Sequence record: KM389298.1
DNA length: 10,064 bases
Reading direction: 5' to 3' (one strand)
Origin: Escherichia phage CBA6
Shown here: positions 1,621 through 10,064 of the stretch, in pieces
Layout of the letters: the number at the start of each line of letters is the position of its first letter
Position numbering within the stretch: position 1 is the first letter of the stretch
The notes under the pieces: generated by a model
The model's input: only the letters and a program-made list of their open reading frames with translations
What the model was told of the DNA's origin: nothing
The model's database searches: none
Position numbers and translations under genes: made by a program

Positions 1621-1899
1621 TTACTGGCCGTTGGCGGCAGCTTTCAGACCTTCGCCGACTTTGAATTTAACAACATTTTTCGCTTCGATCTGAATCGCTT
1701 GCCCGTTCAGCGGGTTGCGGCCAGTGCGCGCTTCCTGATGTTTAACTTCAAACGCGCCGAAGCCGACGAATTGGACAGATTGGCCAGCTGCGACTGCAGT
1801 TTTTACGCCGTTGATAAAGGATGCCACGATCTTCTCTGCTTCGCCTTTGGTCATACCCTGAGTCTGGGCGATGTGAGCGATAAAATCAGTACGGTTCAT
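1621..1899 (-). CDS. HU/IHF-family (DNABII) histone-like DNA-binding protein, 92 aa
   Basis: Translation MNRTDFIAHIAQTQGMTKGEAEKIVASFINGVKTAVAAGQSVQFVGFGAFEVKHQEARTGRNPLNGQAIQIEAK... carries the HU signature (GFGxF, RTGRNP arm). Start taken as the internal ATG at 1899..1897, preceded by GGAG; the 12-codon extension in the track has no SD. Confidence 0.85.
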   Translation of the reverse strand: MNRTDFIAHIAQTQGMTKGEAEKIVASFINGVKTAVAAGQSVQFVGFGAFEVKHQEARTGRNPLNGQAIQIEAKNVVKFKVGEGLKAAANGQ

Positions 1900-1982
1900 T
1901 CGGATTACTCCAGTTAGTTGTTTACAATGTTTCACTACAAGAGGACTACAGCTTACCTAACAAATATTATTGAATAAAGCGT

Positions 1983-2774
1983 TTATTTGCCGACGTTCAG
2001 CATTTTACCTGAGCCGGATCCGTCAACGATCAGAGTACATTTTCCACTATTGGCACATGATTGTAATACCATGTTATATTCATGTTGAAGATATTCAGGC
2101 GTCAGCGAAGTGGTCAGTTTCTGGTTCGCTTGGGCTTCTTGCTCGCGAATTTCAACGTTCTTTCTTGCCGTATCCAATCGTTTGTCCGCCATAACATTAT
2201 CACGGATAGACTGCTCAATAGAAGGATCCGTCAGCGCCTTTTTGACCAACACGCGTGTGATTGTGAACATGCCAGGCGCAGCAGTCTCTAATTGTTGCTG
2301 AGTGCGGTCTTTAATCATCTTCTCTAATTCAGCACGTTGGGTGTGAATTGTCATAGAATCAAGAGAAGAAACGGCGTCCATCGAAGAAGATGCTGCAGCA
2401 GTTTTAACTAGATTGAAACCCACCGCTATCGTGCCATCATCGAGTTCGGCGCTCTGGCCAGCAAATTTGGTATGGAACCACGGAACCTTTGCGACATTGG
2501 GTGTGTAATAAACATCCACATCCAAGTCTTCCAGAGTCAGGTTGTCTTTGGCCTTTGGCGTCATTTTAGTCAGACTCACAACGGCTTCTTTGGTCGTGTA
2601 AACATCCACGCTTGAAACAAAGCTGGTGTAGATCCCCGCTGTTACAGGGTTCATGTCTACTTCACCCCATTGGGTGCGAACGCCGACATTACCTTCATCG
2701 ATAACGCCACCACAACCAGAAAGTAGACTTGCAGCCAGAACCATAATTGCACCGAACACCAATTTCTTGAACAT
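1983..2774 (-). CDS. Lipoprotein with SPFH/band-7 (stomatin/prohibitin/HflKC-like) domain
   Basis: N-terminus MFKKLVFGAIMVLAASLLSGC has a signal peptide and lipobox (LSG-C). The body resembles SPFH domains (e.g. ...LEDLDVDVYYTP... and ...RVLVKKALTDPSIEQSIRDNVMADKRLDTARKNVEIREQEAQ...). ATG at 2774..2772 overlaps the upstream stop (TGATG). Confidence 0.6.
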   Translation of the reverse strand: MFKKLVFGAIMVLAASLLSGCGGVIDEGNVGVRTQWGEVDMNPVTAGIYTSFVSSVDVYTTKEAVVSLTKMTPKAKDNLTLEDLDVDVYYTPNVAKVPWFHTKFAGQSAELDDGTIAVGFNLVKTAAASSSMDAVSSLDSMTIHTQRAELEKMIKDRTQQQLETAAPGMFTITRVLVKKALTDPSIEQSIRDNVMADKRLDTARKNVEIREQEAQANQKLTTSLTPEYLQHEYNMVLQSCANSGKCTLIVDGSGSGKMLNVGK

Positions 2775-2983
2775 CAATGTACCCCTTCAAAAATGTAGAT
2801 ATATGCACCCAATGTGAGTGCGGTTATTGTAACCGAAGAAATCAGCAGCAGGAAAGTTACCCTCACCCGTTTGCGCCAACGTTTACTTCGGTAGATTTTA
2901 GTCTCTTTCAAGTATTTGAAAAAGAAAAATAAAATGAATGTTGAAATTACGAATATGAACAGGTAACGAATTAATCCGATCAT
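2774..2983 (-). CDS. Small hydrophobic membrane protein, 69 aa, about two predicted TM helices
   Basis: MIGLIRYLFIFVISTFILFFFFKYLK...VTFLLLISSVTITALTLGAYIYIF has two hydrophobic stretches separated by a basic loop. ATG at 2983..2981 lies one base after the stop of the upstream gene (TAAAATG); its stop overlaps the lipoprotein start. Confidence 0.55.
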   Translation of the reverse strand: MIGLIRYLFIFVISTFILFFFFKYLKETKIYRSKRWRKRVRVTFLLLISSVTITALTLGAYIYIFEGVH

Positions 2984-2984
2984 T

Positions 2985-3167
2985 TTACACCTGCGTTTTC
3001 CACAATCGCTTGATATTGTTGTTGAACTGGAACAAATCATAATCACCCAGAGCATTCTTCAGGCGCTGCGCTTCTTCAAATGTTGGAACCTCAACATGAA
3101 AAGCGATCCCAGGAACCTGGGGAATATGCCAAACGCGAAATTTAAGTTCAAACGGTTTATTCGACAT
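2985..3167 (-). CDS. Hypothetical protein, 60 aa
   Basis: ORF with ATG at 3167..3165 preceded by GGGAGA; overlaps the upstream gene by 11 nt and sits within the coupled gene string. No recognisable motif. Confidence 0.5.
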   Translation of the reverse strand: MSNKPFELKFRVWHIPQVPGIAFHVEVPTFEEAQRLKNALGDYDLFQFNNNIKRLWKTQV

Positions 3168-3444
3168 GGGGTTCTCCCTGAGACAGTATGGTTTTCATCT
3201 GTTCACGCGTGATAATTGTTTCAACAAGATTCTCGTCAATCATCATTTCGTTTAACAGTTCACAACCCAGCACGTGTGGTCGCGCCATATACGGCATGGC
3301 GTTGAGTTTTTCTTCTATGTCAAGAACGCGCTTGACAGTCAGACCCATAGAAGAAAAGGGAACAGGATAAAAGAATGAAATGATCTGATTATCCATCCCG
3401 TTTGAAAATCTCACTAATAATACATCACACCATACACCGGACAT
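3157..3444 (-). CDS. Hypothetical protein, 95 aa
   Basis: Start assigned to ATG 3444..3442, preceded by GGTGGAGGTG and located one base after the stop of the 223-aa gene (TAATATG). The longer 108-aa form in the track would overlap the upstream gene by 38 nt and lacks an SD. Confidence 0.55.
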   Translation of the reverse strand: MSGVWCDVLLVRFSNGMDNQIISFFYPVPFSSMGLTVKRVLDIEEKLNAMPYMARPHVLGCELLNEMMIDENLVETIITREQMKTILSQGEPHVE

Positions 3445-3445
3445 A

Positions 3446-4117
3446 TTACACCTCCACCGAGTGGGATTTAAGTAGTTCATCAATTCCTTTCTGCCCCATG
3501 TAAGAGAACGGGGTACGCTGGTAGAACGCCCACAGGACTAATTGAACGACGGCGCGGGAACGGCTTTCGGAACGCATCTCAAGTCCGCGAAAATGTGGTG
3601 ATTCGGCAGTCCATTGGATCTCTTCACCCAGGTCTTCGTTACAATCCACCGAAATGCGGAATTTATGACACAACGCGTCTACTTCTCCGTAAGCATCAGT
3701 GGAAACCCTGAGTTGTTCTGCATGCGCCCAAGAAGTCGTAACAATCCGTTCGCCCATCACTTTGTCAGAAACAAACCAATCAATCGATTGAGTGAAATCA
3801 TCGAAGTGATCAATACGATAGATAATCCCATGACCTTCCATACATTTCATGGCATGATAACGTGCGTCAATTTCATTATTGTGCATCGCGTTGAAGTCGA
3901 TGTAAACCCGCCTCGCCAACACAACGTCTTCTGGCTTCAAAGAGACCATCGTCGTGTCATTCATCGTGTAATGAAGGATGCCTGTACCACGCCCACAGTC
4001 ATGTTGGCAATACACGTATTTGTCCCCACCAACACGGGCATAAGCAATATAACAAGGTTCTGAGAATCGAAGGTTTCCTTGGTCTGCGCCAAGGATGATA
4101 GGATAAGATTTGTCCAT
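3446..4117 (-). CDS. Hypothetical protein, 223 aa, Cys/His-rich, function unknown
   Basis: Long ORF on the same strand as all neighbours, first gene after the 4140..4160 hairpin. No motif I can assign confidently. Confidence 0.7.
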   Translation of the reverse strand: MDKSYPIILGADQGNLRFSEPCYIAYARVGGDKYVYCQHDCGRGTGILHYTMNDTTMVSLKPEDVVLARRVYIDFNAMHNNEIDARYHAMKCMEGHGIIYRIDHFDDFTQSIDWFVSDKVMGERIVTTSWAHAEQLRVSTDAYGEVDALCHKFRISVDCNEDLGEEIQWTAESPHFRGLEMRSESRSRAVVQLVLWAFYQRTPFSYMGQKGIDELLKSHSVEV

Positions 4118-5031: not shown

Positions 5032-5352
5032 TTATCTTTGATTTCCAACGAAATTAGTCGCTATTTCCCGACACATAGTCAGATCTTTGATCGTCTGTTT
5101 GCTATTGTCGGCAGCGGACTCCATCATTGGCAAATCTAAAGCATTCTCTATTTGATCCACGCTGTAGAGATCAAGGCGTTTCAACTCACCTTCATAATCT
5201 GATAAAAGGATGGATGTATCCTTATCGTCGGGGTGAAATTGTTGATAAGTAGACAACCAGGCCGCACATATATTCAATTTGCTGGCCGGAGTTGCCATAA
5301 CTTGGAATGATGCTAACATAGAAAAGAATAACAAGAATATTATGTTTCTCAT
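5032..5352 (-). CDS. Small exported (periplasmic/secreted) protein, 106 aa
   Basis: N-terminus MRNIIFLLFFSMLASFQVMA-TPAS is a typical Sec signal peptide with an AxA-like cleavage site. ATG 5352..5350 preceded by AAGGAG; overlaps the upstream stop as ATGA. Confidence 0.65.
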   Translation of the reverse strand: MRNIIFLLFFSMLASFQVMATPASKLNICAAWLSTYQQFHPDDKDTSILLSDYEGELKRLDLYSVDQIENALDLPMMESAADNSKQTIKDLTMCREIATNFVGNQR

Positions 5353-6038
5353 CTTTCGTTCTCCTTCATCATATTGTCGCAGTCAATCCGTGTTTGCTTG
5401 AGTTCACGCGAAAGCCTTGGGTCGTCTAGATTGACAGACAAATTAGTAGAAAGATCTTTCAATCCGTTCTGAACACGATCCTCATAGTAATAATCATTTT
5501 CTACGAGCCATGCTCTCAGCCCCAACGCACGTGTCCGCCATTCCTTTTTCAAACGTCGATCTGATTCTTGGTCGGCACTATATTCAAACACCTTGATGCA
5601 TTGGTTGCCATCATTGATCAGATCCAAATGTCGACGCCCGATTTGCACACCCTTCTGTAATGCCGGAGAGGGGAGAGAACGGCATTGCCTTACAGTCATA
5701 CGGCCTTGTGTGCCCATACGGCCAGTCATGATGAGATCGCCAGCCTCCATGCCTCCTCGGTTAAATTCATCGTCGTTCATATATCCTTTCAGGTTGAATG
5801 CGCCTTGCTTATATCGATTAAACTCGATACCAGCATTTACAACGGCATCTGTGACATTACCTGTGGCCCAGAGTTCAGAAAAGTTCTCTATGGAACCAGT
5901 TTTGTCTATAGCCACGGCTTGGGAGAACCCAGCACAGTAGGAAAGATCAGACCACAGTTTTTCACCTGTGGAATTCAGCTTGGCGGTGGCAGGAAGTGCC
6001 AGACCAGCCAGCACAACCGCGATGATTAAACGTTTCAT
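5349..6038 (-). CDS. Exported protein with cleavable signal peptide, about 229 aa
   Basis: Start assigned to ATG 6038..6036 (MKRLIIAVVLAGLALPATA-KLN), preceded by AAGGAG at 7-nt spacing. The 22-codon N-terminal extension in the track has no SD. Confidence 0.7.
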   Translation of the reverse strand: MKRLIIAVVLAGLALPATAKLNSTGEKLWSDLSYCAGFSQAVAIDKTGSIENFSELWATGNVTDAVVNAGIEFNRYKQGAFNLKGYMNDDEFNRGGMEAGDLIMTGRMGTQGRMTVRQCRSLPSPALQKGVQIGRRHLDLINDGNQCIKVFEYSADQESDRRLKKEWRTRALGLRAWLVENDYYYEDRVQNGLKDLSTNLSVNLDDPRLSRELKQTRIDCDNMMKENER

Positions 6039-6066
6039 GGTGATTCTCCTTATTTCATTGGATAAA

Positions 6067-6095
6067 ATGATAGGGCTGTCACCATGTTGAGTAAA
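6067..6095 (-). promoter_or_regulatory. Candidate sigma70-type promoter for the exported-protein gene pair
   Basis: Minus strand: -35 TTTACT (6095..6090), 17-bp spacer, -10 TATCAT (6072..6067), located in the 84-bp gap upstream of the 6038 start. Confidence 0.35.
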
Positions 6096-6122
6096 GGGTT
6101 TCAATAAACTATCGTATTCAGA

Positions 6123-6572
6123 TCAGTATCGACTATCACTGACCGTTCTGTATCGCACCCCTTGAAACTGTTTAGCGAGTTTAACAAATTCCATCGCTGG
6201 CAAATCAACTTTGTAGACCTTCATGCGCTGTTTGCCGTCCATGTTCAACGCAGCGACAAATCGGTGAGAACCGTCAACAACGTAATTGTCAGAAGACACC
6301 CAAACTCGACCCATGGGCTTCTTATTTCTGATCTGCTTCATAATCTTCCAGACCTTCATTTTATTGATTTCGTTCTGGGTAAGACGAAGCATTTTGATAG
6401 GCACTTGCGCAGCATCTATAGACACGCCGTTGTCTTCAAGATATTTGTGAAAATCTTCTTGTTTGTCTGCATCGATTTGCGGCATAGAAGAACGAGAAAG
6501 CCCGAGGTTCCCAACAGGAATCCTCAGGCCATTTATGATATTCATCCAGTCAATAAAGGATGTAAGGAACAT
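6123..6572 (-). CDS. ParB/Srx-fold (ParB-like nuclease / sulfiredoxin superfamily) domain protein, 149 aa
   Basis: Segment ...MLRLTQNEINKMKVWKIMKQIRNKKPMGRVWVSSDNYVVDGSHRFVAALNMDGKQRMKVYKV matches the ParB/Srx pattern (hydrophobic strand, then DG-x-HR-x-x-A, then hydrophobic strand). ATG 6572..6570 preceded by GAGGTG. Confidence 0.5.
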   Translation of the reverse strand: MFLTSFIDWMNIINGLRIPVGNLGLSRSSMPQIDADKQEDFHKYLEDNGVSIDAAQVPIKMLRLTQNEINKMKVWKIMKQIRNKKPMGRVWVSSDNYVVDGSHRFVAALNMDGKQRMKVYKVDLPAMEFVKLAKQFQGVRYRTVSDSRY

Positions 6573-6609
6573 GACACACCTCGGGATATAGGGTTATCCC
6601 TTAGTTAGT

Positions 6610-6888
6610 TCATTCGGACTTAAACAACAATTCGCGAACAGAAGTCCCAACGATATTCTGGGTGTTCAACAAACGAGTTAAATCATCCATGTCATATGCT
6701 GAATTGGTGATATGACGCAAGATAATCGCCAACATTCCCTCCAGCGCTCTCCGATTGTTATTCTCTTCAATGTCAAACTTAATTTCAACAAATCGAGATA
6801 GCATTCTGGATTGAGCATGAGTTTCGTTGGTTTTGCTCTGTATAATATCTTTGATTTCCGAACGAGCAATACTTCTTTGATCTGTCAT
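6610..6888 (-). CDS. Hypothetical protein, 92 aa, starting MTDQ
   Basis: ORF with ATG 6888..6886 preceded by AAGGAA. Its leader and first four codons are near-identical to those of the 6941..7447 gene. Confidence 0.6.
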   Translation of the reverse strand: MTDQRSIARSEIKDIIQSKTNETHAQSRMLSRFVEIKFDIEENNNRRALEGMLAIILRHITNSAYDMDDLTRLLNTQNIVGTSVRELLFKSE

Positions 6889-6946
6889 GATATAGTTCCT
6901 TCATTTCAAATGGGCGGGGCAAAGATACCCCGCCGTGGGTTTATAG
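6877..6946 (-). repeat. Copy A of a ~70-bp regulatory cassette: TATAAA box, GC-rich stem-loop, CATTTGAAATGAAGGAA leader, ATG ACA GAT CAA
   Basis: Aligned by eye to 7436..7505 at roughly 80% identity. Stem-loop GGCGGGG-n8-CCCCGCC at 6913..6934. Confidence 0.6.
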
Positions 6947-7447
6947 GGTAATAAGTGATACGGTAAAAACCATCGTCCCATCTGTTGTCATTTTTCTTGA
7001 AACTGGGAAGACGCGAGGCTGGCAGAATATCCATTCTTTCTCCATGGACGCCAAGTCCAGCATATCCATTTCTGATTCATCGTCTTTGTTCACAAATTTT
7101 TCTAGAGAACCAAAGACATTAAGCCCCTCTGGGAGTCCGTTTCGATGTTTGTAACAAATGCGAGCAACAGCTCTGGTTCCATACGATTTAGAAAATTGTT
7201 TGGCCACATGCTTCAGTTCGCTGAAACTAAGACAAGAATCCCATGTCTGAAACATGTCTCCTCGTTCAAACATCATCTCCAAACGCGCAACGTCCTCTTT
7301 AGGCAACCCGCGATAAAGTGTGGTCATCTGCGGTTCGCGTAATTCTTGCACCAGACCACGGATGGCAGGGGAAACAGTGCCAGGGCGCATGATGTGGGAC
7401 TTATCATGGACGAGGTAAAATAAATCTTGAATTTGTTGATCGGTCAT
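6941..7447 (-). CDS. Candidate mono-ADP-ribosyltransferase (R-S-ExE class), 168 aa
   Basis: Three motifs in the order and approximate spacing of R-S-E ADP-ribosyltransferases: 'TLYRG' (aromatic-Arg), 'LSFSE' (S-x-S) and 'EKEWIF' (E-x-E followed by hydrophobics). ATG 7447..7445 preceded by AAGGAA. Assignment is from motifs only. Confidence 0.45.
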   Translation of the reverse strand: MTDQQIQDLFYLVHDKSHIMRPGTVSPAIRGLVQELREPQMTTLYRGLPKEDVARLEMMFERGDMFQTWDSCLSFSELKHVAKQFSKSYGTRAVARICYKHRNGLPEGLNVFGSLEKFVNKDDESEMDMLDLASMEKEWIFCQPRVFPVSRKMTTDGTMVFTVSLITL

Positions 7448-7869: not shown

Positions 7870-8196
7870 TTACTTGCGCAGGGCAACCACGTATTCGGCA
7901 AGTTCACCCATGGTCGGGTCGTCGCCTTTACCGCCCAGCCAGCCATCAGAGATCTCGACATTGAACTCTTCTTCTAGTTCCATGACGATTTCGATGGCAT
8001 CAAGATCGTCGCCGCCGAGGTCTTTCTTGGTGCGGAGGCCAGCCAGTTTATCCAGGGCGTCATTCATAATCACTTCCGCGTCGACGATGCCTTTGATGCT
8101 GCTCTTGTCTTCGTCACTGACTTCCAGGTTCAGATTGTCAGTGGCGTACTGAGCCAGGTGACGCATTACTTCAACATAAGTTGGTTTGTTTGACAT
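7870..8196 (-). CDS. Acyl carrier protein (ACP)-like protein with Asp in place of the phosphopantetheine-attachment Ser, about 108 aa
   Basis: Core ...KKDLGGDDLDAIEIVMELEEEFNVEISD... aligns with canonical ACP helix II (E. coli ...[27 protein letters not shown]...), but the conserved DSL Ser is Asp (codon GAT at 8015..8013, checked on the DNA). Start taken as ATG 8196..8194; ATG 8202..8200 is an alternative. Confidence 0.7.
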   Translation of the reverse strand: MSNKPTYVEVMRHLAQYATDNLNLEVSDEDKSSIKGIVDAEVIMNDALDKLAGLRTKKDLGGDDLDAIEIVMELEEEFNVEISDGWLGGKGDDPTMGELAEYVVALRK

Positions 8197-8215
8197 AAGC
8201 ATATCTCAAAATGAA

Positions 8216-8231
8216 GGCGGGTTTCCCCGCC
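8216..8231 (-). terminator. Stem-loop between the large upstream gene and the ACP-like gene (weak terminator or RNA processing/stability element)
   Basis: GGCGGG-gaaa-CCCGCC followed on the minus strand by TTCATTTTGAG. Same stem composition and YATTTGA tail as the other intergenic hairpins. Confidence 0.4.
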
Positions 8232-8239
8232 AGTTGAAT

Positions 8240-10064
8240 TTAGATTTTGACTTCTTTTTCAGACAGTTCGGCAGTGACGGTGTATTTCACCCCATCAACT
8301 TCCACATCCATAGTGGATTCTTCCAAATCCAGGTCGGTAAACCAACCATGGCCTGCAACAATCCCATAAACTACCTTGGACAGCGTTTTGTTCAGGGCGC
8401 GGACTTCGTTAATGGCTGCTTTTGCTGCATCACCAATCCAACTTTCGATCAGCTTTTTCTGAGTCTCTTCCGGTACGCTGGTGATCATCGGCGATTTAAC
8501 AAACGCATTGTATTCAGCCAGGGCATTAGCGATCAGCTGATCAGCGACATTCAGTTTTTTACCGTCCGTCTGTTTTTTGATAACAGACGCGATGCTCGGC
8601 AGTGAAGATGCGCCTTTGATTTTCACATTCAATTCACGACTCATATAGACATCGGTTGATTCTACAGAAGAAGTCTTCGGTGAAAATCCATAGTCGCGAA
8701 TGCCGTTTGCTGACAGGAAATCAGCCGCTTCTTTGCCATATTTTGAAGCCAGACCCGTAGCGTTGCCTTTTCCAACCAGTTCATCACGGTAGAATTTCAG
8801 AACTTTCTGTTTTGCCTTCAATGCTTCACGGCGCACATTGTCTGCAAAGAATTCAGCAGCACTGATATTCTTTGTCATGGCGCGGTTAACCATTGGGACA
8901 CTTTCCAGATTTACAATGAAGACTTCCGGCCCACCAAACACATGAACACCCATGGCAGTCAAATCCTGTGCCACCTTAGCCCGAACAATCGGAGAATCTG
9001 CAGTGATAGGCATTGTTTTCAGGTTGATGATACCATCCTTGACAATGGTGTAATTGCGATAACGCCATGTATCCAGCTCTTCAGGAAGTTCATATTTCTT
9101 CTGTACAAACTCGGGCACAACAACCGTTCCGTGTTGAACTGTCTGCACACTGATGTTAGGACGTTCTGAATTATAGACCAAATTGCTGATCGGGACAATC
9201 CCTTTATCATCTGCTGGATTGAATTCCGGCGTCCAATCTTCGTGCTCGGCCAGTTTGAGCGCCAGGGCTTTACGCTCTTCTTTAGAAGTCGCATTCGCAA
9301 TCTCTTCGGCCAACTTGTCTTCGGTGTCGTCAACTTTTTGTATAGTACCGCGCCCAATGCTCTTGTAAGAGAATAGCGGATGCTTGGTGACGATAGAGAC
9401 ATCTGCTTCAGCCAAATACGTCAGAACATCAACAATGGTGGTGGCGTCTTCAGCCGGAACCATATTATAATCGATGCCATCAACTCCTCGCAGAGATTCG
9501 TCTACGATAGCCTGAGTCAGATCGACTTTGATGTTGGAGTAATCCTGCTTGGTGAAACAGTTGCTGTATTGTTTGATGAAGCGGACGTCACCCGTTTTCT
9601 TCAGCGCAGCCCAAACCAAATCTGCGTCCATGGTATACACGCCGTAAAATGCCAGCACGTATGCCGCTTGGATGTCTGCCAGATTATCCAGCTGGTCGAT
9701 CATGTTGGGGTTTACAACCCACAGCTGAGAAACGCTTTCAGGGATGCTGACGTGGCCAATAGGGTGCTCTTCATCAGGATGCACGGCTAAAACAGTCGCC
9801 ACGCCATTTTCAACATAAATGGCATGGGTGTAAACCAGGGGAACATCGACCACCACTTTCGGTGAAGAAGTTTTTAGCACGTTTTCCAATTCGGTCTGAT
9901 ATTCATTCTGGCCTTCAGCGAATACGTGGGTCGCACCAGAACGTTCTGCCATTAGCGCCAGCAGTTCGCGATTACAATACCAACCGTATTCGATGAAGGT
10001 AATGTTATCAAACGCTTTGGGCAGTACTTCAGCGGCATCCAGGATTTCATTAGAACGCCAGCAG
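8240..10064 (-). CDS. Large hypothetical protein (at least 570 aa in window, probably longer); N-terminus likely beyond the right edge
   Basis: ORF 8240..9952 in the track; the same frame stays open with protein-like sequence (…SNEILDAAEVLPKAFDNITFIEYGWYCNRELLAL-MAERSG…) from 9953 to 10064, and no SD precedes ATG 9952. No Walker A, polymerase, ligase or other catalytic motif recognised. Confidence 0.6.
   Translation of the reverse strand, partial: CWRSNEILDAAEVLPKAFDNITFIEYGWYCNRELLALMAERSGATHVFAEGQNEYQTELENVLKTSSPKVVVDVPLVYTHAIYVENGVATVLAVHPDEEHPIGHVSIPESVSQLWVVNPNMIDQLDNLADIQAAYVLAFYGVYTMDADLVWAALKKTGDVRFIKQYSNCFTKQDYSNIKVDLTQAIVDESLRGVDGIDYNMVPAEDATTIVDVLTYLAEADVSIVTKHPLFSYKSIGRGTIQKVDDTEDKLAEEIANATSKEERKALALKLAEHEDWTPEFNPADDKGIVPISNLVYNSERPNISVQTVQHGTVVVPEFVQKKYELPEELDTWRYRNYTIVKDGIINLKTMPITADSPIVRAKVAQDLTAMGVHVFGGPEVFIVNLESVPMVNRAMTKNISAAEFFADNVRREALKAKQKVLKFYRDELVGKGNATGLASKYGKEAADFLSANGIRDYGFSPKTSSVESTDVYMSRELNVKIKGASSLPSIASVIKKQTDGKKLNVADQLIANALAEYNAFVKSPMITSVPEETQKKLIESWIGDAAKAAINEVRALNKTLSKVVYGIVAGHGWFTDLDLEESTMDVEVDGVKYTVTAELSEKEVKI

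Follow-up and report, generated by a model that had tools for sequence, protein, structure and literature searches.

A 149-residue Kuttervirus protein represents a large viral ParB/Srx-fold family and is a candidate nucleotide-binding enzyme

Introduction

The ParB/sulfiredoxin (ParB/Srx) fold has lately been recognized as a versatile nucleoside triphosphate (NTP)-binding module with uses well beyond chromosome partition. Sulfiredoxin chemistry needs the cysteine of a G-C-H-R motif. SerK (Thermococcus, 5X0B) and SbnI (Staphylococcus, 5UJD) are metabolic free serine kinases, and DdrB-like ParB is a ParB family found in the polyvalent proteins of phages (Iyer et al. 2017, PMC5512222). Here we compare with these systems a protein encoded on the minus strand of a 10,064-nucleotide stretch of Escherichia phage CBA6 (KM389298.1), which we call the window. 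Its complete coding sequence (6123..6572) is supported by the open reading frame (ORF) list, the annotation of orthologs, purifying selection, and an AlphaFold model, and specifies 149 amino acids (aa; 17.3 kDa, pI 9.9, and zero cysteines by composition).

The gene product is small, basic, soluble, and enzyme-like, and consists of one copy of a phage module of ~130 residues. What is new here is the family that this module defines: large, viral, covered by no Pfam model, equipped with an extra N-terminal element and a SerK-like loop, and recurrent in polyvalent proteins. The function that we favor, and to which we give about an even chance, is that of a nucleotide-binding phosphotransferase or NTPase, possibly virion-delivered, acting early on a nucleotide-related substrate. 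The Kuttervirus member is a convenient entry point, being a 17-kDa single-module protein of phages that are easy to grow and infect E. coli and Salmonella (CBA120, Vi1, and Det7).

A ParB/Srx fold beyond the reach of sequence models

An earlier note made from the DNA letters had assigned the C-terminal ~90 residues to the ParB/Srx fold and proposed structure prediction as a check. The AlphaFold2 model, built on an alignment of homologs, had a mean pLDDT of 82.7 and a pTM of 0.76. The top 42 Foldseek matches in the PDB all belonged to the ParB/Srx superfamily, with alignments of ~73–118 columns, and included pNOB8 ParB-N, Noc, sulfiredoxin, ParB, Atu1540, SbnI, PadC, 1VK1, and SerK. Sulfiredoxin and the N-terminal domain of ParB could both be superposed on the alpha/beta core, and a conserved G-x-x-R phosphate-binding loop was located at the junction of strand 3 and helix 2. 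On this model the 149-aa protein has the ParB/Srx fold, and the assignment made in the note was right.

Sequence searches recovered little of this relationship. A Pfam search with the 149-aa protein returned nothing at E ≤ 10, PF02195, PF18763, and ParBc_2 included, so the PF02195 match that the note had proposed to look for did not appear. PDB sequence searches, made with the single protein and with a profile of its close homologs, gave chance matches only, such as von Willebrand factor via “DGSH”. ParB-like PHROGs matched weakly (E 0.0015–0.016), and PHROG 2859, which has no known function, matched at E = 3e-45 (residues 2–147 to profile columns 316–467 of 740). There is no curated NCBIfam name for the module family. 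The ParB-like nature of the protein is nevertheless already in public annotation: orthologs are named “ParB/Sulfiredoxin domain-containing protein” in UniRef, and a 2024 paper on Vi01-like phages matched them to 1VK1 and pNOB8 ParB-N (PMC10892097). Recognition of the fold is therefore not new.

Conserved elements of the module

Conservation was read from an alignment of 164 sequences, made up of the query and 163 copies of the domain taken from the 150 top-ranked proteins, and from a second set of 70 stand-alone relatives at 28–60% identity. Residues 93–107 (SSDNYVVDGSHRFVA; 6252..6296, minus strand) form an S-x-D…D-G-(S/H)-H-R-(F/W)-x-A block that is predicted to be the phosphate-binding (Box II/P-motif) loop of the fold. 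Within it, D100-G101-S102-H103-R104-F-V-A107 is encoded at 6252-6275 and DGSHR at 6261-6275, in the run V-V-D-G-S-H-R-F-V-A-A (residues 98–108). Counts per 164 aligned sequences were 151 for S93, 158 for D95, 163 for D100, 164 for both G101 and H103, and 149 for R104. DGSHR was invariant among 20 homologs with identity down to 40%, and in the 70 stand-alone relatives D100, G101, and H103 were invariant and R104 was at least 90% conserved. The earlier note had staked its reading on a superfamily match and on a conserved DG-x-HR-x-x-A motif, and both were found; the motif residues are near-invariant family-wide. Position 102 is His in 127/164 sequences and Ser in 22/164, so that the family consensus is DGHHRW and the DGSHRF of Kuttervirus is a minority variant.

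A second motif, L-(K/R)-x-T-Q-x-E…K, lies at the junction of strand 1 and helix 1 (residues 62–73, LRLTQNEINKMK; 6354..6389, minus strand). Q66 was present in 162 of the 164 sequences and K73 in 140, and position 68 was Glu in 124 and Asp in 23. The motif corresponds in position to Box I of ParB and, within a register uncertainty of 1–2 residues, to the catalytic Glu30 of SerK.

The third element is specific to the family and N-terminal to the core (residues 19–33, PVGNLGLSRSSMPQI; 6474..6518, minus strand). It contains R27 (148 of 164) and M30-P31-Q32 (146, 148, and 147), the remaining sequences being mostly copies truncated at the N-end; R27, P31, and Q32 were invariant in 70/70 stand-alone relatives. 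The note had set the first 55 residues aside as an extension. This does not hold, as residues ~16–55 are a conserved part of the module in which R27, M30, P31, and Q32 are conserved like the ParB motif. About 20 viral structure models shared the whole ~130-residue module (TMq 0.70–0.92, 120–198 aligned columns), whereas ordinary ParB-N domains in the same viral-structure comparison aligned over ~89 columns only, with a TMq of about 0.45. Because the whole module is shared while generic ParB-N domains align only over the core, the conserved unit is an Srx-like core (~56–149) plus a family-specific strand-helix-strand (~16–55) with R-x-x-M-P-Q. Together, the near-invariant R27, M30-P31-Q32, Q66, E68, K73, S93, D95, D100, G101, H103, and R104 point to a putative active site.

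Residues 1–15 (MFLTSFIDWMNIING; 6528..6572, minus strand) form a predicted N-terminal helix (DSSP helix 2–15 in the model). Their columns were gaps in 100–162 of the 164 aligned sequences, and they are the sole part specific to the Ackermannviridae-like clade. A T4-type capsid-targeting sequence in this helix is not supported: the sequence close to the N-terminus lacks an (L/I)-x-E protease site.

A large and essentially viral family

In an exhaustive profile search of 1.84 billion cluster representatives, 4,873 proteins passed a threshold of E ≤ 1e-3 and 2,266 one of E ≤ 1e-10. Matches typically extended from profile position ~15–23 to ~148. IMG/VR contained at least 430 confirmed loci, and prokaryotes searched at one genome per species (185,579 species) contained 35, mostly on small contigs of metagenome-assembled genomes. 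The module family is essentially viral.

Scans of domain architecture and neighborhood covered ~240 proteins. By length, the best 150 representatives comprised 68 of ≤200 aa, 48 of 200–500 aa, and 34 of >500 aa; 20 of them had more than one profile match, many being clear tandem copies. In the DGHHRW branch, 36 host ORFs at 63 non-redundant IMG/VR loci were longer than 500 aa, although the simple ORF caller may overestimate lengths. The note’s term “stand-alone” is thus right for this phage lineage and wrong for the family as a whole, in which the module is often embedded in multidomain proteins. Fusion partners were Zeta_toxin/AAA_33 kinases, CTP_transf_like, PolyA_pol, RelA_SpoT, ADPrib_exo_Tox, ART-PolyVal, Acb1, GNAT, and inteins. 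The same set of domains characterizes the giant polyvalent proteins of phages, for which packaging and injection, as putative early effectors, have been predicted (PMC5512222).

Tandem or dispersed module pairs occurred in many large phage proteins (P0052, P0054, P0062, P0069, P0076, P0117, P0146, and P0147; locus L111). The R-x-x-MPQ element was often absent from the second copy, whose match began at profile position ~37–40. In two family members, intein splicing domains were present within the protein.

Genes flanking the module at the 63 loci included those for terminase, portal, head-maturation protease, and minor head proteins, as well as for cytidyltransferase, polynucleotide-kinase-like, methyltransferase, and DUF6267 proteins. 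DUF6267 (PF19782; probably the same as phrog_455) was the commonest neighbor, with 6–7/148 flanking ORFs at these loci and a best E of 2e-112, and may reflect a single phage lineage and not a link in function. The distant stand-alone homologs had clamp loader, helicase, RNase H, RNA ligase, and rIIA/rIIB-like genes as neighbors; the gene adjoins RNA ligase and rIIA/rIIB-like genes, or has clamp-loader genes on one side and a helicase/RNase H on the other (L005 1590-2513; L003 934-2383 and 3925-5697). Together with the CCA-type (PolyA_pol) and cytidylyltransferase-like domains of the fused versions and some polynucleotide-kinase-like neighbors, this hints at a possible connection to RNA or tRNA repair.

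Relation to described ParB/Srx proteins

Kinase branch. By sequence, the module appears to form a family of its own within the ParB/Srx superfamily, covered by no model and closest to the kinase branch. SerK and SbnI are its putative nearest characterized relatives, in a group to which it does not itself belong. The only PDB sequence matches of the family profile were SerK and 1VK1, via a D-x-Y-L-I-V-DGHHRW block, and the loop of SerK and 1VK1 is near-identical to the family consensus D-x-Y-(I/V)-L-DGHHRW-x-A. SerK was the best NCBIfam match for 6/8 family members (SerK profile positions ~13–99), with 15–19 bits against a cut-off of 380; the 149-aa protein itself scored nothing. ParBc_2 (PF08857) was the most frequent Pfam match, found below threshold in 27/70 relatives with a best E of 1e-4. 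The catalytic Glu30 of SerK was replaced in the mutants used for SerK structures (E30A/E30Q, PDB titles); where helix 1 begins, the module family has an acidic residue that would lie at or beside that position. In a pairwise alignment with member P0080, SerK residue 30 was opposite the residue between Q and E of TQxE. The kinases differ in combining DGHHRW with metabolic roles, where the Kuttervirus protein combines DGSHRF with a viral origin, and in lacking the R-x-x-M-P-Q element conserved in the module family. Structural alignments covered only the first ~90 residues of SerK/SbnI-type targets of 241–254 aa.

Sulfiredoxin. The 149-aa protein has the H-R of the sulfiredoxin G-x-H-R loop in common, but it has Ser at the position of the sulfiredoxin Cys, an extra N-terminal element, and no peroxiredoxin context. 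Because it contains no cysteine at all, sulfiredoxin chemistry is excluded.

Canonical ParB. In ParB, Noc, KorB, and pNOB8 ParB-N an Arg-containing phosphate-binding loop (Box II, GERRxR) lies in the same place. Canonical ParB also has a helix-turn-helix (HTH), a dimerization domain, Box III, a ParA motif, and a parAB context, none of which was found for the 149-aa protein. The idea that it is a degenerate partition ParB, a centromere-binding CTPase clamp, draws on the shared N-terminal-domain fold and on nothing else. The protein ends after the Srx-like core, leaving no HTH, C-terminal dimerization domain, Box III, or ParA-interaction motif [LFI]G[KR]G[LFI]; no parA was present in the ten neighboring ORFs scanned, PF02195 did not match, and the Ackermannviridae phage is strictly lytic. 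The partition reading is effectively refuted, and the note was correct that there is no HTH in the protein and no partition partner nearby. PF02195 was matched by only 1/70 relatives (E = 0.032). Since PF02195 also fails to detect the 149-aa protein, this protein was probably not sampled by a 2025 survey of the fold seeded with that model (PMC12704722).

DdrB-like ParB. PF18763 recognized P1 DdrB at E = 2e-39 and did not match the 149-aa protein, and we rejected membership in this family. Only 4/70 relatives matched PF18763, weakly, and the hhalign probability to DdrB was 0.1–0.5%. The DdrB loop reads E-S-G-N-G-R, in contrast to D-G-(H/S)-H-R in the module family. What the two have in common is a lifestyle: both occur solo or in giant polyvalent proteins of phages and prophages with ADP-ribosyltransferase (ART), kinase, nucleotidyltransferase, and RelA/SpoT domains. 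Packaging in the head is another common trait, predicted or shown (PMC5512222); an ortholog of the 149-aa protein was detected in virions by mass spectrometry. The likeness is one of lifestyle, not of membership.

Nuclease-associated members. DUF262/GmrS-type domains (type IV restriction, Dnd/Ssp) have a distant ParB/Srx fold with a DG-x-x-R loop and act in phage-host conflict (PMC12373910). Unlike the phage 149-aa protein, they are encoded by the host, are joined to nucleases, and have DGQQR or DGQHR motifs. If the protein were a ParB-like DNase or nickase, its pocket would bind metal and DNA; it might attack the DNA of the host or of a competitor, by nicking or degrading it, or process that of the phage, and NTP binding might regulate it as proposed for Osa, ParB-methylase fusions, and DdrB-like ParB. 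The structural neighbors include Osa and pNOB8 ParB-N (“ParB domain protein nuclease”), the strongly basic pI of 9.9 suits nucleic-acid binding, one weak PHROG match was to “ParB-like partition nuclease”, and Iyer et al. predicted an NTP-regulated DNase for polyvalent ParB domains. The same authors deemed NTP sensing or degradation likelier than DNase activity for such domains (PMC5512222). Neither the protein nor the 70 relatives belonged by Pfam to a nuclease-annotated ParB family, the closest sequence relatives are kinases rather than nucleases, and a nonspecific DNase packaged beside the genome would require tight control. We regard a DNase or nickase as unlikely.

Probable virion association

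Mass spectrometry of purified Sajous1 virions detected the ParB ortholog gp192 at a level comparable with minor baseplate and tail proteins (PMC10892097). The orthology of gp192 is supported by gene order (Sajous1 VWA gp185, acyl carrier protein gp186, ParB gp192, SPFH gp200; Guerrero VWA 121, acyl carrier protein 120, ParB 115, SPFH 107) and by the annotation of the Guerrero ortholog, which the same laboratory gave the same product name as in Sajous1. In the Vi01 record, Vi01_117c is annotated “phage assiociated protein” while most neighboring genes are “uncharacterised”. This annotation probably reflects the Vi1 particle proteome, for which 41 particle-associated proteins are cited in PMC3184105. 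In several other records the ortholog is a “putative structural protein”. The Kuttervirus ParB/Srx-fold protein is probably virion-associated.

The same Sajous1 list contained SPFH gp200 with 3 spectra and the acyl carrier and VWA proteins with one spectrum each. Vi01_112c (L007 873-1160; window ~3157-3483, minus strand) is likewise a “phage associated protein” in the Vi01 record, so that two or more proteins encoded in this seemingly non-structural region may be particle-associated.

Presence in virions and the name “structural protein” in several records would also suit a non-catalytic role, in which the module is a nucleotide-gated switch, an adaptor or activator of a partner protein, or a minor internal component of the virion, and the fold binds a nucleotide or nothing. 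There are precedents: canonical ParB proteins are CTP-gated switches (PMC12704722), and a phage ParB activates its cognate 5mYOX thymine dioxygenase, with no effect of mutations in its NTP-binding residues (PMC13229309). The 149-aa protein, however, lacks the dimerization domain that ParB-type clamps and the 5mYOX activator require (PMC13229309). A near-invariant constellation of polar and charged residues (R27, Q32, Q66, E68, K73, S93, D95, D100, H103, and R104) across thousands of highly diverged copies is more typical of catalysis than of partner binding, and multidomain proteins of very different kinds that contain the module preserve it. Nor is there a conserved partner gene, as adjacent slots vary even within Kuttervirus. 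We hold a non-catalytic role to be rather improbable.

Predicted function

In the phosphotransferase or NTPase that we favor, the D-G-S-H-R loop would bind the phosphates of an NTP, probably ATP, as judged from characterized members of the fold. The T-Q-N-E motif, with which helix 1 begins, would supply a catalytic base or a metal-ligand carboxylate, comparable to SerK Glu30, and the invariant R27/Q32 element would probably complete the substrate or nucleotide pocket and set specificity. The terminal phosphate might then be passed to a substrate, as in SerK, SbnI, and sulfiredoxin, or the NTP might merely be hydrolyzed. Low copy numbers appear to be carried in the virion and would act at or soon after infection. 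The target would be a host nucleotide, a nucleotide-derived small molecule, or a nucleic-acid end, with no role in DNA partition; we infer early action on a host nucleotide-type target because of virion carriage and of the fusion of the module to nucleotide-directed effector domains.

A more daring proposal, which we doubt, is that the module (R-x-x-MPQ + T-Q-x-E + DG[H/S]HR) defines a new phage-specific enzyme family of this fold, a virion-delivered phosphotransferase. As soon as infection begins, it would phosphorylate or in some other way use up a nucleotide-derived molecule of the host, such as an immune second messenger, an NAD-related metabolite, or a damaged RNA end. Such an activity would account for the repeated fusion of the module to the anti-CBASS nuclease Acb1, to nucleotidyltransferases of the NMNAT-like and CCA types, and to Zeta kinases, RelA/SpoT, and ADP-ribosyltransferases. 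If the protein truly is a delivered kinase or NTPase directed against host nucleotide signaling, it would represent a new class of phage counter-defense enzyme; if it is merely a generic nucleotide-binding accessory protein, its description is routine annotation.

Several observations weigh against the phosphotransferase or NTPase reading. The DG-x-HR loop is also found in ParB/Srx proteins that are not kinases, and in the 2025 survey 17/28 purified ParB/Srx proteins bound no NTP in vitro and neither sequence nor AlphaFold3 predicted the nucleotide specificity of the fold (PMC12704722). The sequence links to SerK and ParBc_2 lie far below curated thresholds, the register of Glu30 against TQxE (SerK residues 29–31) is uncertain by 1–2 residues, and SerK and SbnI have ~240–250 aa, of which a C-terminal substrate-binding domain of ~120 residues is missing from the 149-aa protein. 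The Kuttervirus clade has Ser at position 102 rather than the family-typical His. As for delivery, the virion evidence is weak: the Sajous1 list also contains the non-structural RegB, SSB, and glutaredoxin, and some carry-over of abundant non-structural proteins in it is likely. The T4-type late promoter TATAAATA was absent from the window, where no late promoter was recognizable. Stand-alone homologs are located among replication and early genes, and the enrichment of head-morphogenesis neighbors is modest, with portals 5 times in 63 loci.

The note had offered DNA modification, nucleotide hydrolysis, and anti-defense as possible roles. Nucleotide hydrolysis or phosphotransfer and anti-defense are plausible on the comparisons made here. 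DNA modification is unlikely. Kuttervirus DNA is modified via a phosphorylated 5-hydroxymethyldeoxyuridine intermediate (PMC5889632, PMC11721090), a ParB/Srx phosphotransferase could in principle phosphorylate the hydroxymethyl group, and the gene is conserved across the phage family, all of which would fit an additional DNA kinase or a DNA-binding cofactor in the thymidine hypermodification pathway (5-NeOmdU). Lee et al., however, reconstituted 5-NeOmdU in lysates from five other genes of Vi1 only (ViI gp67, gp160, gp226, gp243, and gp247) and had no need of Vi01_117c, which is also not among the genes unique to hypermodifying phages (PMC5889632). The module moreover occurs in very many unrelated phages, mostly inside polyvalent proteins. 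We therefore rejected hypermodification as the main hypothesis and consider such a role very improbable.

Gene conservation and expression signals

Orthologs of the gene at 6123-6572 are FEC14 gp115, CBA120 orf137, Vi01_117c, and GUERRERO_115. A search with the 3.5-kb stretch around the gene matched 276 phage records, with 97% identity to FEC14 (Escherichia phage) and SeF6a (Salmonella phage); the gene itself was found in 254 (megablast). Orthologs at ~80% nucleotide identity differed by 52–65 synonymous and 10–26 nonsynonymous codon differences. Because synonymous differences far exceed nonsynonymous ones, this is a real gene under purifying selection. It is kept across Ackermannviridae genera, the source lineage being Kuttervirus (Vi1/CBA120-like).

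A Shine-Dalgarno sequence, GAGGTG (6577..6582, minus strand), was read 4 nt 5′ of the ATG. The stop codon of the upstream gene is at 6610-6612, and as the gap between the two genes is only 37 nt they are probably co-transcribed. Promoter-like sites in the window were not commoner than in shuffled sequence.

Genomic neighborhood

The gene belongs to a long minus-strand block in the order HU-like gene, SPFH lipoprotein gene, superinfection-exclusion gene (as annotated in ortholog records), spanin-like genes, and ParB/Srx-fold gene, which continues with small ORFs, a variable slot, an acyl carrier protein gene, and a VWA-domain gene. In the window the variable slot (6941-7447, minus strand) contains an ADP-ribosyltransferase-like gene of 168 aa that matched phrog_832 (“RNA polymerase ADP-ribosylase”) at E = 8.5e-16, at the C-terminal end of the 1480-column profile. 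ART domains are fused to the ParB-like module in other phages. A functional link to this gene, two genes upstream, is not supported: Vi01 has a pyrimidine-dimer DNA glycosylase in the slot and Guerrero two small ORFs, so the ART is not a conserved partner.

Beyond the slot, the acyl carrier protein (PP-binding, phrog_4154; 7870-8202, minus strand) adjoins the gene for a large VWA-domain protein, which extends beyond the ORF as listed (8240-9952+, minus strand). Orthologous records show a further small “putative acyl carrier protein” beyond the VWA gene. Between the VWA and acyl carrier protein genes lies a hairpin with a perfect 6-bp GC stem and a T-rich tail (8216-8231; GGCGGG-GAAA-CCCGCC on the minus strand). 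The hairpin resembles a terminator on either strand and may delimit the transcription unit with the ParB-like gene.

At the other end of the block, an HU/IHF-type DNA-binding protein (1621-1935, minus strand; PF00216, E = 1.6e-29) adjoins the SPFH/Band-7 lipoprotein (1983-2777, minus strand; PF01145, phrog_200). Directly downstream of the ParB/Srx-fold gene is an overlapping gene pair (5032-5352 and 5349-6104, minus strand). The pair is named inconsistently among records, variously “Rz-like spanin” or “putative lipoprotein” and “hypothetical” or “i-spanin”, and both products have signal-peptide-like hydrophobic N-termini. For 5349-6104, the annotated start is internal to the listed 251-aa ORF (MKRLIIAVV…).

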